The position numbers were made by a program, and so were the translations under genes. Below the pieces are notes generated by a model. That model ran no database searches. It had not been told where the DNA came from and saw nothing but the letters and a program-made list of their open reading frames with translations. A DNA stretch of 64,000 bases from Bacillota bacterium (GTDB lineage: Bacteria > Bacillota > Desulfotomaculia > Desulfotomaculales > JBFMEU01). Positions 49,220-55,203 of the stretch are shown piece by piece (within the stretch, counting starts at the first letter, position 1; each line of letters opens with the position of its first letter). The stretch covers positions 13,273-77,272 of the forward strand of contig JBFMEU010000001.1 in the NCBI GenBank assembly GCA_040753155.1, in the 5' to 3' direction.

Positions 49220-51817
49220 CTACAACAAATCCTTCACCTGAAAGGCACAGCGGCAGGGGGGACTGTGGGAACAGACAGCCAGCGGCCCGCGCCTGGAGGT
49301 GATCGTTTTCAAAAGATGACCTGCCGGGCAGCTCAGCCCGGCTTCAGCCAGGTATTGTCCCAGGATTTCCGGCGTCAGATTTTGGGCCGGCTGCCGGCAG
49401 CGCGGGTAGGCCGTGCAGCCCAGGAAATATCCGTGGCCCGTTCCGGCACGGACTGTCAGCGGACTGCCGCAGCCGGAACAGGTGAGCATGTTCTCCACGT
49501 AAGCCCTCAGTCCGGAATAGCGCCCTCCCAGGAAACCTTTGCGCAAATCCAACTCCAATAGATACATCAGGGTGCGGCAGACCTTTTCTCCGCTTAACCG
49601 TACGCTCAAGCGGTCCACCCGGTGGTCGTCCGGCCAGGGGCAGCCGTACCAAACCGAGCTGGTGTCGATGGCCGTAAGCGGCGTCCTGACACCGGGGGAC
49701 TTGACCACATAGGGCTGTAATTCCCCGGGAAAGGCTGAAGGCCGGCCCGCCCGCAAAGAGAGGCGGGCTCCGCCGGCCAGGGCCCGCTGCAGGGCGGCTG
49801 TCACAGGCCGCCCCGGCGGTCCGGCGGAGGCGGGCCAGTCCATTTGCACCACGGCGGCCTCCCGGATATCTTCACACCACGCCTCCAGGACCGGCATGCG
49901 CTCGGTATGCCAGTCGAGGCTTAAGGCCGAACCCCGGAGATGATCAGGCAAAGCCGCCAGAAGTTCTTTGCCCCTGATCACCCTGCCGTTCTGTTCAATG
50001 AAGCGAAAGAGCCGCGGCACGATGGAGTCACCGGGCAGCCGGTCCTCCAAAAAGGCGCGGTGGGCCAACACCATAAGCTTGCCCCGCGCCCTGGTGACGG
50101 CAACGTTCACCAGCCGCTGCCCGGCCCCGCCTGCCCGGCGGGAAAGGATACCCCCCGGACCACGCTGGGGGAAAGCGTCCACCAGGTCCAGCACCACCGC
50201 GTCCTGTTCCGCACCCTGAAAGCGGTGGATGGTGGCGGCCACCAGGCCGGCTGCCTCGGATCGGGCGCCGGCCGCCCCCAGCAGCCCGGAAACCATGGCG
50301 TTCAACAGCCTGGCCTGGGCTGCGTAAGGCGCGAGCAGTCCTACCGAGAGGCCACTCAGCCTTACCTGCCAGGCCAGCGCCAGGGCCAGAAAAGCGGAAA
50401 AAGGGTTGAAGCGGGAATGAACATGCCGGTAGCACATGGCCGGCAAGTCGCTCAAGTCAACCAGCACCAGCGCCGACCCGGGGCAGGGGTCAACGGCGGC
50501 CAGTTCAGCGCGCCGGGCGGTCTCGGGGGCGTTGAAAAGCTGGCCGCCGTACACGGTGTCGTTGACAAAGCCGGCAATGGCCGGATGCATGCGGCGCTGG
50601 TAGCGCAATACAGCCAGATCCGGCATCTTGCCGGCCTCAAAGGAGGCAATGATTCCGGCTTCATCGAAGATGTCGCGCTTCAGCCAGCGATCCACTCCCT
50701 CCGTCCCGGCCAGGGCCACCGGGGCCAATTGGCGGAAATCACCGCTGACCACCAGGTTCCGGCGGGCCAGCGAGGCGGCAAAAAAGACTTGAGGAATATA
50801 GGCCATACTGGCTTCGTCCAGCAGTACGGTGTCGAAGTGGCCCTGGTAAATCAGAGGATCTGTCGCCGCCATGGCCAGAGTACAGCCAAGCACACCGGCC
50901 TCACGGGCCAGTTGCGCCTCCGCTTCTTTCAGCTTCGCCCGAACCTCACGCAGCGCCAGTTCCACCTCATCCATACCGCCGCCGGGGCGCCTGCCGGAGC
51001 GCAGTCCGGCCAACAGGGCGCTGCGCTCCGCTTCCAGTTTTCTCCGCCGGTCCCGCAGGTCGGGGCGCCGGGCGGCGGCCAAGTTGGCCGCCAGCAGCCC
51101 ACTCTGCCGCAGCGCCGGCAACCTGGCCCAGCCGTAGCGCAACACCAGGCCGGAGGGCGCAGACTCTCCAAATTGCGTTGCGGCCCGTAACACGGCGCCA
51201 TCCACGGCCACGTTGGCGTGCGAAAGGATCAAGACCCGCCGTCCCTGTCCGTGAAAGAGCCGCGCCAGGCGGGCCAGGGTCTCGGTCTTACCGGTGCCCG
51301 GCGGTCCCCAGATAAAAGTGATTTCCCTGCCGTCAGCCAGGCGCAAGGCCTCTTCCTGGGCACCGGCCGCCGCTGAGGGCGGGACATAAAGCCGCGGGCC
51401 GGCCGGCACGCTTCCCAGCACCGCCAGGGCCATCTTGAGGTTTCTCTGAGGTGCCTCGCTTAATCGTTCCTGCAGGGCGGTCAGTAAAAACCAGGGCTCG
51501 CCAAAGACCTCGGCTCGCTCGACATAATCACCTATATTTTTGCTTAGCGCCAAAGTAAGCTCGGCGCCACGGACTGTCACAACCTCGCCCCTGGATTCGC
51601 GGTGTCCCGAGCAAACCCGCACCGGTGTGCCGTCCAAAAGAAACGACTCTATCTCCAATTCAAAGACATACAAAAAACCTGATTCGCCGCGATGGATTAA
51701 CACCCCGTCCAAAGCCATCAGGGGGCGTCCGCCCTCGTGCGTCAAGTAAGCTATTTCGTCGGCCAGGGCCTCTTTAAAAGCTTCAATAATACTGGAAAAA
51801 TCCAATCCGGCAGGCAC
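49220..51817 (-). CDS. SF1B (Upf1/DNA2-like, AAA_11/AAA_12) helicase with a C-terminal Topo-IA-type zinc ribbon (gene D of the candidate system)
   Basis: 865-aa ORF with a GTG start. Motif I IWGPPGTGKT, II VLLDEASM, III SGDFRQLAPV, VI VAVTRARGKLMV. C-terminal CSGCGSPLTVRAGTGHGYFLGCTAYPRCRQ plus a second Cys-rich ribbon. Confidence 0.85.
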   Translation of the reverse strand: MPAGLDFSSIIEAFKEALADEIAYLTHEGGRPLMALDGVLIHRGESGFLYVFELEIESFLLDGTPVRVCSGHRESRGEVVTVRGAELTLALSKNIGDYVERAEVFGEPWFLLTALQERLSEAPQRNLKMALAVLGSVPAGPRLYVPPSAAAGAQEEALRLADGREITFIWGPPGTGKTETLARLARLFHGQGRRVLILSHANVAVDGAVLRAATQFGESAPSGLVLRYGWARLPALRQSGLLAANLAAARRPDLRDRRRKLEAERSALLAGLRSGRRPGGGMDEVELALREVRAKLKEAEAQLAREAGVLGCTLAMAATDPLIYQGHFDTVLLDEASMAYIPQVFFAASLARRNLVVSGDFRQLAPVALAGTEGVDRWLKRDIFDEAGIIASFEAGKMPDLAVLRYQRRMHPAIAGFVNDTVYGGQLFNAPETARRAELAAVDPCPGSALVLVDLSDLPAMCYRHVHSRFNPFSAFLALALAWQVRLSGLSVGLLAPYAAQARLLNAMVSGLLGAAGARSEAAGLVAATIHRFQGAEQDAVVLDLVDAFPQRGPGGILSRRAGGAGQRLVNVAVTRARGKLMVLAHRAFLEDRLPGDSIVPRLFRFIEQNGRVIRGKELLAALPDHLRGSALSLDWHTERMPVLEAWCEDIREAAVVQMDWPASAGPPGRPVTAALQRALAGGARLSLRAGRPSAFPGELQPYVVKSPGVRTPLTAIDTSSVWYGCPWPDDHRVDRLSVRLSGEKVCRTLMYLLELDLRKGFLGGRYSGLRAYVENMLTCSGCGSPLTVRAGTGHGYFLGCTAYPRCRQPAQNLTPEILGQYLAEAGLSCPAGHLLKTITSRRGPLAVCSHSPPCRCAFQVKDLL

Positions 51818-51870
51818 CTCTCAAGGGGATCAAGTAAAAAGCCCGGTCCGTTTTTTAAACATTGCTGGAG

Positions 51871-51962
51871 GCATATTCTCGGGGTATTCTGACTCCTGAC
51901 TCCTGACTCCTGACTCCTGACTCCTAACTCCTAACTCCTAACTCCTGACTCCTGAATAGTTG
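51871..51962. repeat. partial four-helix-bundle MITE with a (GACTCCT)4(AACTCCT)3 GACTCCT array
   Basis: CATATTCTCGGGGTATTCT, then the heptamers, then GAATAGTT. Fills most of the gap between genes C and D. Confidence 0.85.
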
Positions 51963-54318: not shown

Positions 54319-54408
54319 TGTAATCGCACCCAGCGCCTCTTTGTCCTGCGGCGGCCGTCCCCGCCGCAGGTGTTCGAGGGCTTCTTCCCTTGTTACCGGG
54401 TCCAGAGG

Positions 54409-55203
54409 CTATCCCTCCCTGTAAAACTTCATTACGCCGAGGCGCTGGGGCTGTCCCTGGGCGTCCAAAACCACCAGGGCCTGTTTCCGGCTGCGCACAT
54501 TGCCCAGCCAGAGCCGCCGGCCGTCCGGCGCGTTCGGCTGGCCGCTCTTAAACACCCTGTGCAGGTCAAAGGCAAATAGCTGCAATGGATAATCCCGCCT
54601 TTGCTGCGGCATGGGTGTAAGGGTATTATAAACGTCTTTAATCAGCACTTCCTGTTCGTTTAAGTCGATTTTGGTTTTCGCGATCTGCCTGGCCATCTCC
54701 GTATCGTAAGCCGCCGCCAGGGCCTGGAGAAAGCGCTGGGCGTCGAAGGAAGCCGCGTTTAAGCGGTCAATGCTCTTCTTCAAGTGTCTGGCCAAAACCC
54801 CCGGGCGCAGGTTGCGGTAGACCTTATCGTCAATGGTTACCATTTCTTTGTCCGGCAGCACCCGCACCTTAAAAGGCAGCACCTCGTAGACCGGGTACTC
54901 GGCCTCCACAGCCAGACCCTCATCAGCCAAGGCCGCCAGGAACACCTGGTGAAAATCCTCCAAAAGGTACGACTGCAGGCTGAAAGACGGCACTTTTTCT
55001 TTAAAGTCCTGCAGGTTCGCTTTTTGCCTCTCCACCAGTTCCTCATAACGGACCAGTCCCTGCTGGAGGGCCTCCAGGTTTCCCCCAACGGCTGCTTCAT
55101 TGATCCGCCTCACCACGTTCAACATGCTGCGATGGACGTTGTTCAGGCTCTTAAAGTCCTCCTGCAGCGATTGATCCAGAAATTTATCCAGGTTTATAGA
55201 CAT
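54409..55203 (-). CDS. hypothetical helical protein (gene A of the candidate system)
   Basis: 264-aa ORF. Heptad-like helical N-terminus (LNNVHRSMLNVVRRINEAAVGGNLEALQQGLVRYEELVERQKANLQDFKEKV). No motif I recognise. Its TAG stop is in frame with gene B. Confidence 0.6.
   Translation of the reverse strand: MSINLDKFLDQSLQEDFKSLNNVHRSMLNVVRRINEAAVGGNLEALQQGLVRYEELVERQKANLQDFKEKVPSFSLQSYLLEDFHQVFLAALADEGLAVEAEYPVYEVLPFKVRVLPDKEMVTIDDKVYRNLRPGVLARHLKKSIDRLNAASFDAQRFLQALAAAYDTEMARQIAKTKIDLNEQEVLIKDVYNTLTPMPQQRRDYPLQLFAFDLHRVFKSGQPNAPDGRRLWLGNVRSRKQALVVLDAQGQPQRLGVMKFYREG

Follow-up and report, generated by a model that had tools for sequence, protein, structure and literature searches.

ATPases of the ORC/Cdc6 clade are classic helicase loaders, and BrxD and SngB are ATPases of validated defence systems, where each has a helicase as its partner. 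Shango is an operon encoding a small non-enzymatic protein (SngA, which has a TerB domain), an ATPase of the PF10923 family (SngB) and a helicase (SngC). Mokosh consists of full-length MkoA together with the PLD protein MkoB (type I) or of a helicase-PLD fusion (type II). In PbeABCD, PbeB is a small disordered protein, PbeC a CxC ABC ATPase and PbeD a DndE cognate (PMC10853773). In BREX type 2, BrxD is an ORC/Cdc6-type AAA+ protein that forms a closely linked dyad with the helicase BrxHI, and a role as a loader has been proposed for it (PMC12839542). The loaders of the ORC-Cdc6/MCM and DnaC/DnaB pairs belong to the same AAA+ clade; they are heteromers in which active subunits stand beside inactive ones, and their target is a helicase (PMC12839542).

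The locus described here lies in a 64-kb window (the whole stretch of 64,000 nucleotides that was analysed) and comprises four intact, co-directional ORFs, A to D, on the minus strand. An earlier, sequence-only reading of this DNA had listed the four ORFs together with their motifs, all of which are present in the window translations, and had suggested that they fit no named system. This suggestion holds against PADLOC v2 (2023), NCBIfam (June 2026) and the searchable open-access literature. PADLOC models gave single-gene matches only, namely BrxD and SngB for the ATPases B and C, and the MkoA helicase core for the helicase D.

In its operon layout the window resembles Shango, with a PF10923-family ATPase and a helicase accompanied by a small protein that is not an enzyme. 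The PADLOC model of SngB was observed to match B at 1.5e-11 and C at 1.2e-10, both weaker than BrxD, and to match the B and C proteins of a related gut clade at 1e-16 to 1e-17, B and C being in one superfamily with SngB. However, unlike SngA, gene A has neither a TerB nor an SngA match and no neighbour in the PDB or BFVD. The ATPase is duplicated here, into an apparently degenerate copy B and a predicted active copy C, and SngC is matched neither by the Upf1-like D nor by the PbeA-like SF2 helicase or BrxL of other lineages. The PADLOC matches of D are MkoA, MkoC and GajB, and include neither SngC nor BrxHI. Identity with Shango was rejected, there being no SngA/TerB and no SngC.

The likeness to BREX type 2 lies in BrxD, a stand-alone, helicase-linked ATPase of the same Pfam family, which is the top PADLOC and NCBIfam match of both B and C (3e-21 for B with the PADLOC model). 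However, B (71.1 bits) and C (67.0 bits) fall far below the cutoff of 350 bits of the BrxD equivalog NF033438. BrxHI is an SF2 helicase of the Ski2-like kind and D an SF1B helicase, and the window has an extra protein, A, and a second, apparently degenerate ATPase, B. The sole PADLOC match to BrxC is weak and confined to the P-loop (E = 0.066). The ORFs of the 64-kb window are all too short for PglX, PglZ, PglW or BrxC/PglY, and none resembles PglX, PglZ or BrxC/PglY; D is the largest at 865 aa, and the housekeeping enzymes reach 609 aa at most. Neither a TerB nor a nuclease domain could be detected in A-D. Both results agree with the earlier statement that PglX, PglZ, BrxC and a TerB protein are missing. 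BREX type 2 (Pgl) was rejected on the lack of ORFs of suitable size for PglX, PglZ, BrxC or PglW, the lack of a BrxHI match and the missed BrxD cutoff.

At 1.7e-49, the core of D aligns with the helicase portion at the C-terminus of MkoA. However, of the 1112 positions of the MkoA model D covers 629-1099 only; its N-terminal region and Top1-type zinc ribbons are its own, and neither MkoB nor a PLD nuclease is found in D or its neighbours (there is no PF13091 match). Mokosh was rejected, as neither full-length MkoA with the MkoB PLD protein nor a helicase-PLD fusion is present. The comparison with PbeA concerns the divergent helicase of the gut/digester clade, not the D of the window: PbeA models match that helicase at 1e-58 to 1e-60, but over the core only, from about position 250, the HKD nuclease part being missing. 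PbeABCD was rejected as well, A, B and C being unrelated to PbeB, PbeC and PbeD and showing no matches to them. The replicative loaders show no orthology at the sequence level (E = 0.7 for C against DnaI) and act on ring-shaped helicases, whereas the partners of A-B-C are monomeric SF1/SF2 enzymes or BrxL. The distribution of A-B-C is that of an accessory module and is not universal.

Gene products of the cluster

Gene A (54409..55203, minus strand) encodes a protein of 264 aa that is matched by no Pfam, NCBIfam or PADLOC model. In an AF2 model (pLDDT 91.4), residues about 5-94 form an acidic antiparallel helical hairpin, and the C-terminal part after it is alpha/beta and basic (pI about 9.7), in keeping with the earlier description of a helical N-terminus. 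A Foldseek search of the model against PDB and BFVD gave nothing better than E = 0.1. A profile search collected 631 clusters at 50% identity and, judged by these relatives, gene A is the founding member of a large unannotated family. With its coiled-coil and basic globular part, A is probably an adaptor or nucleic-acid binder.

Gene B (53188..54405, minus strand) and gene C (51966..53216, minus strand, 416 aa, overlapping the end of B) encode ORC/Cdc6-type AAA+ proteins of the BrxC_BrxD family. Both score above the Pfam gathering score of 22.2 for PF10923, an ORC/Cdc6-clade AAA+ family (B, 2.4e-26 and 93.1 bits; C, 2.1e-21 and 76.8 bits), and both contain a Walker A motif, GKTGSGKTH in B and GNFGNGKTH in C. 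They align collinearly over 367 columns at 22% identity, and are distant paralogues by this measure, in line with the initial assignment of two paralogs to the BrxD/DUF2791 family. The Walker A and Walker B (LLLDEFE) motifs of C are kept in 42 of 42 homologues. B has LAMDNLD at the Walker B position, which reads DD, DN, DS or DG, and never DE, in 44 homologues; the P-loop of B is intact in the window and destroyed in the CRISPR-linked clade. Motif conservation indicates that B is a degenerate ATPase and C the active one, a pattern of heteromeric AAA+ assembly. The earlier view of two ATPases is correct as to the family and P-loop of both proteins, but has to be amended for B, the Walker-B glutamate being absent in 44 of 44 homologues.

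The ORFs 53188-54318 and 51966-53216 were found to overlap, as described before, but the proposed start of B at ATG 54318 is not favoured. The DNA upstream of this ATG encodes a conserved N-terminal helix, LEHLRRGRPP. More than 25 homologues have the start codon of B, GTG or TTG, 3 nt past the stop codon of A, and its Shine-Dalgarno sequence, AGGGAGGGA, sits within the last codons of A. The corresponding codon in the window is CTG (54405-54403). The helix and the starts of the homologues point to this CTG at 54405 as the most likely start, and B would then probably have 405 aa (53188-54405), versus 376 aa from ATG 54318. C may start at its second ATG (53195), which overlaps the stop codon of B, to give 409 aa. 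The 3-nt distance from the stop of A to the start of B and the overlap of B with C amount to tight translational coupling, and at locus L036 B and C are one single ORF.

Gene D (49220..51817, minus strand) encodes a Upf1/IGHMBP2-like SF1B helicase of 865 aa, or probably 861 aa with a TTG start at 51805 as in its homologues. It matches PF13086 (AAA_11) at 4e-22 and PF13087 (AAA_12) at 2e-20, and its relatives in the PDB are IGHMBP2, Upf1, Sen1 and Dna2. The acidic N-terminal region (aa 1-150, 51368..51817, minus strand) has no recognised domain and no Pfam match at E <= 1, and is kept among D homologues, including that of L034. The helicase core (aa about 151-610, 49988..51367, minus strand) contains the SF1 motifs I, II, III and VI (IWGPPGTGKT, VLLDEASM, GDFRQLAPV and VTRARGKLMV), which together with AAA_11 and AAA_12 identify it as Upf1-like SF1B. 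In the region of aa about 611-775 (49493..49987, minus strand), the homologue alignment revealed the conserved motifs DWP..AGP, LRAGRP and WYG.PWP.DGRVD; no Pfam match or nuclease signature was found in it, and its AF2 model (pLDDT 45) is unusable. The C-terminal zinc ribbons (49223..49492, minus strand; CSGCG...CTAYPRC) were recognised from profile matches and from Cys and His residues that are invariant among homologues. The first is a Top1-type C4 ribbon at aa 780-807. It matches Zn_ribbon_Top1 at 2.5e-6 to 1e-5, below the Pfam cutoff, and a profile comparison gave matches (0.004-0.017) to the zinc ribbons of topoisomerase I and III-alpha. The second is a conserved, C/H-rich, zinc-ribbon-like motif (C..H...C.H...C) at aa 830-855. 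The original description of D as an SF1B helicase with zinc ribbons is consistent with these results.

The A-B-C trio and its changing partners

Genes A, B and C were observed to be contiguous at every locus long enough to show it (37 genome loci, 80 metagenome loci, Thermodesulfobium and further lineages), and the same architecture is intact in more than 400 loci. In the close clade, that of Pelotomaculum, the Upf1-like D adjoins the trio in 21 of 21 informative loci, and L034 carries a D-like gene that is 36% identical. Of 54 gut/digester metagenome loci, 45 have a PbeA-like SF2 helicase that is transcribed divergently (49 when copies elsewhere in the locus are counted), and BrxL is the partner in one lineage (L050-L052). 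The Upf1-like D, the PbeA-like SF2 helicase and BrxL, along with Cas3 as a neighbour, are nucleic-acid motors of differing families. Some lineages (Thermodesulfobium, L135 and L001) have A-B-C alone, with no partner nearby and in metabolic or housekeeping surroundings, which in Thermodesulfobium are dapB on one side and pstCAB on the other. The comparison of loci indicates that the trio is the unit of conservation and the helicase one of several interchangeable partners. The four-gene unit put forward in the sequence-only reading is thus valid for the close clade, with all four genes together in each of its 21 informative loci, but the core is A-B-C and the fourth gene varies.

One distant clade has the trio inside CRISPR loci, cas3 being on one side and cas1-cas2-cas4-csa1 on the other, with CRISPR arrays alongside (L028, L029, L030, L032 and L039). 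The CRISPR-linked loci span two effector types, I-B and I-D-like, and in L029 cas1 begins 9 nt after the end of C. The trio of L034 is located a few kb from cas genes, and L037 has cas genes and only a decayed, partial A. By gene linkage alone, the trio would count as a CRISPR-Cas accessory in L028-L030, L032, L034 and L039, and not in the 64-kb window, where neither cas genes nor a CRISPR array were seen. The A proteins of the CRISPR-linked loci are 60-85% identical and form a single clade, so that as few as one or two acquisitions may lie behind these loci.

The chromosomal position of the cluster differs between close relatives. In L042 it is inside an insertion of roughly 10 kb between xseA and xseB, and in P. 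terephthalicicum it is flanked by housekeeping genes. TA modules beside loci in other genomes include AbiE, ParE, HepT, MazEF and HipAB. Known defence neighbours within 5 kb of 22 non-redundant metagenome loci (E <= 1e-15; a raw listing with no background set) include Wadjet, Menshen, HEC-01, PARIS AriA, AbiLi and mad3. The gut-clade neighbours are mostly ordinary metabolic genes, DDE transposases make up 2 of 148 neighbours, and an XRE-S24 repressor is present upstream at L049. L038 and P0051 contain decaying copies with internal deletions. The GC content of the A-D cluster is similar to that of the host core genome. Searches of phage, plasmid and viral-contig collections found no member of the family, which is evidence neither for nor against defence.

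Candidate function and rival explanations

What might the trio do? We consider it marginally probable that A-B-C is a widespread defence module, in which A and the B/C AAA+ pair sense foreign DNA and load or activate a motor protein; from its genomic associations, the locus looks like a candidate anti-phage module of this kind. Gene content, family assignments, motif states, translational coupling, co-occurrence, partner swapping and genomic contexts are what the analysis shows; formation of an A-B-C complex, DNA sensing, helicase loading and the role in defence are what we infer. The core would be a three-protein complex of A, B and C, with the B/C pair acting as an ATP-dependent switch on DNA, by analogy with ORC/Cdc6-MCM, DnaC-DnaB, IstB and TnsC. 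This switch would recruit, load or activate the motor, in the window the 5'-3' Upf1-like SF1B helicase D, whose Top1-type zinc ribbons may hold single-stranded DNA, and the motor would then halt the replication or expression of the invader. As no nuclease was detected in A-D, the effector step could be nuclease-independent, reside in an unrecognised domain or depend on a host enzyme. If this reading is true, A-B-C and its motor would constitute an undescribed, unnamed anti-mobile-element module. Counted in its favour are the membership of B and C in the family of the helicase-paired defence proteins BrxD and SngB, the contiguity and translational coupling of A-B-C, the invariant Walker motifs of C beside the degenerate ones of B, partner swapping, placement in cas loci, varying position, and the TA and defence neighbours. 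Counted against it are the lack of a nuclease or effector domain, the A-B-C-only housekeeping loci, the host-like GC content, the housekeeping flanks in P. terephthalicicum, the mostly metabolic gut-clade neighbours and the possibly few acquisitions behind the CRISPR-linked loci.

The AAA+ pair could instead serve the host's own DNA, loading a helicase where it is damaged or stalled, as part of housekeeping or accessory restart, repair or recombination without immunity. The classic loader function of the ORC/Cdc6 clade is consistent with this explanation, as are DnaI, a helicase loader, as the top PDB sequence match of C (only E = 0.7), the conserved housekeeping contexts of Thermodesulfobium and L135, the host-like GC content and the absence from the plasmids and phages searched. 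However, the patchy distribution with position shifts between close relatives, the swapping of helicases across unrelated families, the embedding of one clade in cas operons, the TA and known defence neighbours and the decay in L038 and P0051 are typical of non-essential, frequently exchanged genes, and make such a role unlikely. Quite unlikely, too, is a CRISPR-accessory module that aids Cas3 loading or spacer acquisition, the stand-alone copies, including that in the window, being derived or orphaned. The location of the trio by arrays between cas3 and the cas1/cas2/cas4/csa1 genes, its proximity to cas genes in L034, the two effector types and the 9 nt between C and cas1 in L029 all argue for such a link, but the window has no cas genes or array, most of the family (close clade, gut clade and Thermodesulfobium) is not beside cas, and the linked loci all fall into one clade, whose B is degenerate in a way of its own.

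The relationship of the ATPases to the AAA+ clade of IstB and TnsC, with weak NCBIfam IstB matches (0.01-0.05), the varying insertion sites and the XRE-S24 repressor at L049 would also suit an integrated mobile element that has escaped recognition, with the cluster as its module for replication or for targeting transposition, combining an ORC/Cdc6-, IstB- or TnsC-like ATPase with a helicase. We regard this as very unlikely, since an integrase, transposase or replication initiator near the cluster is not a consistent feature, as the few DDE transposases illustrate, and the phage, plasmid and viral-contig collections searched gave zero matches. Least credible is that a known system, BREX type 2 or Shango, has broken down and left the cluster as its remnant or minimal derivative. 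B and C do match the BrxD and SngB models, and an ATPase beside a helicase recalls BrxD-BrxHI and SngB-SngC. However, the BrxD equivalog scores are far too low, no window ORF has the size of PglX, PglZ, PglW or BrxC, A is not TerB, the relative of the SF1 helicase D is MkoA, not SngC or BrxHI, and an architecture intact in more than 400 loci, with an A family of 631 clusters, is difficult to reconcile with a remnant.

Non-coding features and surroundings in the window

The 480-nt stretch 5' of gene A contains a hairpin, formed by an imperfect 23-nt inverted repeat (55360..55408), and no Rfam family was found anywhere in 48900-55800. Of the four TA modules initially reported around the cluster, three were confirmed in the window: RHH-ParE (40110-40593), MazEF (46110-46819) and MNT-HepT (46868-47726). 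The spacer between C and D is 148 nt long and holds an array of 9.6 copies of the heptamer CTGACTC (51889..51955). This array is one copy of a repeat found scattered across the window, and has no specific link to the system.

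Gene models and protein families at the locus

Four minus-strand open reading frames, here termed A to D, were confirmed within 49220-55203, and the motifs quoted for them in the sequence-only reading were found in the translations. B and C indeed belong to PF10923 (BrxC_BrxD), with Pfam matches of 2.4e-26 and 2.1e-21, respectively, and the corresponding PADLOC v2 models are those of BrxD and SngB. The two proteins are collinear across 367 columns with 22% identity, and are old paralogues. D (49220-51817) was likewise found to be a Upf1-like SF1 helicase, matching PF13086 and PF13087 in Pfam and the MkoA helicase core in PADLOC v2; its sequence relatives in the PDB are IGHMBP2, Upf1, Sen1 and Dna2. 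Of the zinc ribbons attributed to D, a Top1-type ribbon was matched with a score just under the Pfam cutoff. A profile of the D tail showed a weak match to the zinc ribbons of topoisomerases I and III-alpha, and an AlphaFold2 model of the tail (aa 600-865; 6 homologues) was unusable, with a pLDDT of 45.5. Domain searches found no PLD or other nuclease domain in D or A, and an Rfam scan of the locus gave no match.

The start of B had been placed at the ATG at 54318, and this assignment had to be revised. In more than 25 homologous loci, B starts upstream, at a GTG or TTG located 3 nt past the stop codon of A, and the Shine-Dalgarno sequence AGGGAGGGA ahead of it lies within the final codons of A. 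The equivalent codon in the window is CTG (54403-54405), so B is probably a 405-aa protein (53188-54405) using a CTG start. The 405-aa form retains the conserved N-terminal LxxLRxGxPP helix, which would be lost upon initiation at 54318. The CTG may be a sequencing error or a sign of weak initiation or reinitiation; alternatively, translation may begin at the downstream ATG and give a protein without the conserved helix. For C, the ATG at 53195, overlapping the stop codon of B, is a possible start. For D, the TTG at 51805 is the probable one, and the resulting 861 aa equal the length of its homologues.

A (264 aa, 54409-55203) had been described as lacking any recognisable motif, and it returned zero Pfam or NCBIfam matches and no credible PADLOC v2 model; a KwaB match (E = 0.026, 52 residues) was dismissed as noise. 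AlphaFold2, run with 19 homologues, gave a confident model (pLDDT 91.4) in which the N-terminus forms a long helical hairpin with a pI of about 5 and the part after it is alpha/beta, with a pI of about 9.7. Foldseek searches of this model against the PDB and BFVD gave best E-values of 0.49 (MutH, 72 columns) and 0.1, and thus no usable structural match, and a profile of A against PDB sequences retrieved only coiled-coil and designed-helix noise. The residues conserved family-wide are mostly aromatic or hydrophobic, with a few Asp and Arg (FAFDLxRL, DGR), and no nuclease-like constellation was seen in the family alignments. Assignment of A as a PD-(D/E)xK nuclease, as the weak MutH match would have it, was rejected on the basis of the absence of a conserved lysine or acidic triad from these alignments. 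Judging from the model and the alignments, A may be a non-enzymatic adaptor or nucleic-acid binder. The family is large: among 1.84 billion representative proteins, clustered at 50% identity, a profile of A recovered 631 clusters at E <= 1e-3 and 346 at E <= 1e-10. When the protein search was repeated with a diverse set of aligned A sequences, the matches listed came mostly from the close clade again. One 646-aa protein with rhamnosidase domains (P0175; L054 3030-4970) aligns to the A profile over positions 91-221 (1.3e-19), and its neighbourhood contains neither B nor C.

Conservation of the A-B-C trio and its partner genes

Scanning one genome per species revealed 37 loci with an A homologue, mostly from Desulfotomaculia/Pelotomaculum and other Bacillota, and A-B-C was contiguous in every sufficiently long one. 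A metagenome scan based on a single distant sub-clade, whose A shares about 25% identity with that of the window, yielded 374 loci from gut, termite and digester samples, of which 80 were kept; the trio was again present in all that were sufficiently long.

The Walker A (GxxGxGK[TS]H) and Walker B (hhhhDE) motifs of C are invariant in 42 homologues, whereas the Walker B glutamate of B is present in none of 44, the residues there being DD, DN, DS or DG. The P-loop of B is also destroyed in one clade, e.g. VMDDDGEGVTRVL. By these motifs, B is the degenerate subunit and C the active one. The A-B coupling, the overlap of B with C, and a single B-C open reading frame in one locus suggest that A, B and C form a heteromeric assembly. 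In that locus, from a metagenome-assembled genome, B and C constitute one continuous 799-aa open reading frame (L036 10834-13233), an apparent natural ATPase fusion. At L038 (10001-11662), an internal deletion joins the C-terminus of A to that of B. The internally deleted protein P0051 was considered as an A-B fusion, a description rejected once it proved to be an A/C chimera in which the C-terminus of A runs into the middle of C; its locus is either internally deleted or misassembled. L038 and P0051 both point to decaying copies or to misassembly.

The fourth gene is interchangeable between lineages. In the Pelotomaculum clade that includes the window (A at least 52% identical to that of the window), the Upf1-like SF1B helicase D adjoins the trio in 21 of 21 informative loci, usually in the order A-B-C-D and three times as D-A-B-C. 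A D-like helicase, 36% identical, is also found divergently upstream in one locus of a distant clade (L034). The gut, termite and digester clade carries instead an SF2 helicase (about 520-570 aa), which is divergently transcribed and immediately precedes A in 45 of the 54 loci with enough flank; in 4 more it is found elsewhere in the locus. This protein matched ResIII, Helicase_C and ERCC3 in Pfam, and its similarity to the PADLOC PbeA model (1e-58 to 1e-60) covers the helicase core only. The partner is BrxL in three loci (L050-L052), and no motor gene adjoins A-B-C in Thermodesulfobium and two further loci (L135 and L001).

Where B is most degenerate, in a single clade, A-B-C is flanked by type I effector genes (cas3 among them) on one side and by cas1/cas2/cas4/csa1 on the other. 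One such locus, L029, is of type I-B (Cas8b1, Cst2, Cas5b, Cas3), with 9 nt between the end of C and the start of cas1, and Csc2 and Cas10d mark two others, L028 and L030, as type I-D-like. CRISPR arrays with the 37-nt repeat GTTGCAC/TxxATxACCCCGAxxACAAGGGGACTGAAAG are located downstream of csa1 (L029 17054-20363; L030 17117-20789). Pairwise identity among their A proteins is 60-85%; the CRISPR-embedded loci are one clade that keeps its arrangement across species and two effector types, not many independent events. At L028, a gene for a 1234-aa SNF2/SWIM-zinc-finger/DUF3670 helicase (13086-16790) lies on the opposite strand between C and cas1.

Relation to known systems and proposed function

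The cluster had been said to fit no named system, and this holds for the four compared: BREX type 2, Shango, Mokosh and PbeABCD. In its possible working mode, it is most closely analogous to Shango and to the BrxD-BrxHI dyad of BREX type 2. In Shango, a BrxD-like ATPase is combined with a helicase and a TerB protein; the window cluster has neither a TerB protein nor the SngC helicase. BrxD is an ORC/Cdc6 AAA+ protein for which helicase loading or activation has been suggested (Rakesh and Krishnan, PMC12839542). However, the open reading frames of the window are all too short to encode PglX, PglZ, PglW or BrxC, and the BrxD equivalog model, with a cutoff of 350 bits, gives 71 bits for B and 67 for C. 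The cluster differs from Mokosh in lacking a PLD nuclease and MkoB, and from PbeABCD in lacking a CxC ABC ATPase and a DndE cognate. PbeB, PbeC and PbeD are unrelated to the trio (PMC10853773), and the gut-clade cluster is therefore not PbeABCD either. No published account of A together with a degenerate/active BrxD-like pair and a variable motor was found in open-access texts. The ATPase families, the helicase families and the ATPase-helicase logic are familiar. New are the third protein, a duplicated ATPase of which one copy is dead, a motor that can be swapped, and a clade situated within cas operons.

The genomic associations tip the balance modestly toward a defence module, in which A and the B/C AAA+ heteromer would sense foreign nucleic acid and, in an ATP-dependent manner, recruit or activate a motor. 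In the window genome the motor would be D, whose zinc ribbons would bind ssDNA; no nuclease for the effector step was detected. Among gut-clade neighbours within 5 kb (148 pooled from 22 non-redundant loci), no Pfam family recurred in more than four of them, and the cassette is therefore self-contained. Neighbours matching PADLOC models at E <= 1e-15 include Wadjet (JetABCD), Menshen (NsnA/B), HEC-01, AriA, AbiLi and mad3, a raw neighbour list that may point to a link with defence islands. In the window, an MFS transporter gene and an HD-GYP gene flank the cluster, MNT-HepT and MazEF come next, and a third toxin-antitoxin module, RHH-ParE, is located at 40.1 kb. Another locus (L044) has the cluster beside AbiEii/DUF6922 and PhdYeFM/ParE.

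That the trio is instead a housekeeping helicase-loading module appears unlikely. The GC content of the cluster is host-like and the remainder of the window consists of housekeeping genes; the position of the cluster varies among close relatives, lying between menaquinone genes and citrate synthase in P. terephthalicicum. The genes xseA and xseB are normally adjacent, and at L042 (5636-17215) a roughly 10-kb insertion between them carries ABCD, TrkH and a HepT toxin gene. A role in mobile-element replication or targeting is very improbable; tblastn searches of plasmid and phage collections gave no match to A, and a scan of a viral-contig collection found no relatives. The single CRISPR-embedded clade might be taken to reflect a CRISPR accessory role for the whole family, which is quite unlikely, and the notion of a remnant of BREX type 2 or Shango, from whose gene sets the cluster departs as described, is scarcely credible.

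A bolder extension of the defence reading, regarded as rather doubtful, is that A-B-C constitutes a general immune motor-licensing complex that recognises invader DNA and loads the neighbouring motor. On this view, a new adaptor fold would join an active and a dead AAA+ subunit in an ORC-like heteromer of prokaryotes, which would load the Upf1-like D, the PbeA-like SF2 helicase, BrxL or Cas3; in the CRISPR clade it would be a hitherto unrecognised accessory that links type I interference by Cas3 with adaptation by Cas1-Cas2-Cas4.

Should the trio prove to be a defence core, a large unannotated family, with 631 clusters for A alone, would be named and explained, and the long-unexplained BrxD/SngB-type ATPases of BREX type 2 and Shango would gain a tractable case. 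The natural swapping of partners (SF1B, SF2, BrxL and neighbouring Cas3) would probe the helicase-loader idea, and the clade in type I-B and I-D-like cas operons would be a candidate CRISPR accessory function. If it is not, the trio would still be a new conserved AAA+ heteromer with a new adaptor, working with nucleic-acid motors.

Minor features of the loci

An XRE-HTH/Peptidase_S24 (LexA- or CI-like) repressor gene lies directly upstream of A in one distant locus (L049 456-1151), a possible sign of SOS-type or phage-type regulation in this lineage. In the window, the long untranslated region upstream of A contains an imperfect inverted repeat of 23 nt (GGGGGCCGGTG...CACCGGCCCCC, 55360-55408) that belongs to no Rfam family. 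The window also encodes a stand-alone Uma2-family putative endonuclease (1552-2109) and an AAA_14/DUF4143 ATPase (17673-18986), gene types that often occur in variable regions.

Heptamer tandem arrays are scattered across the intergenic regions of the window. CTGACTC arrays occupy 19370-19414, 46019-46061, 51889-51955, 61368-61490 and 62914-62963. ATTCAGA-type arrays, often at a distance of about 50-150 nt from a CTGACTC array, are present at 19300, 45942, 55610 and 61221, and an array of CTCAACT x17 lies at 24265-24384. The C-D spacer is filled by one heptamer array copy, and the open reading frame at 61244-61555 is a spurious translation of another. Directly beside the longest heptamer array are tandem arrays of a 16-mer (7.8 copies, 61532-61656) and a 22-mer (3.1 copies, 61664-61731), with 99-100% matches.
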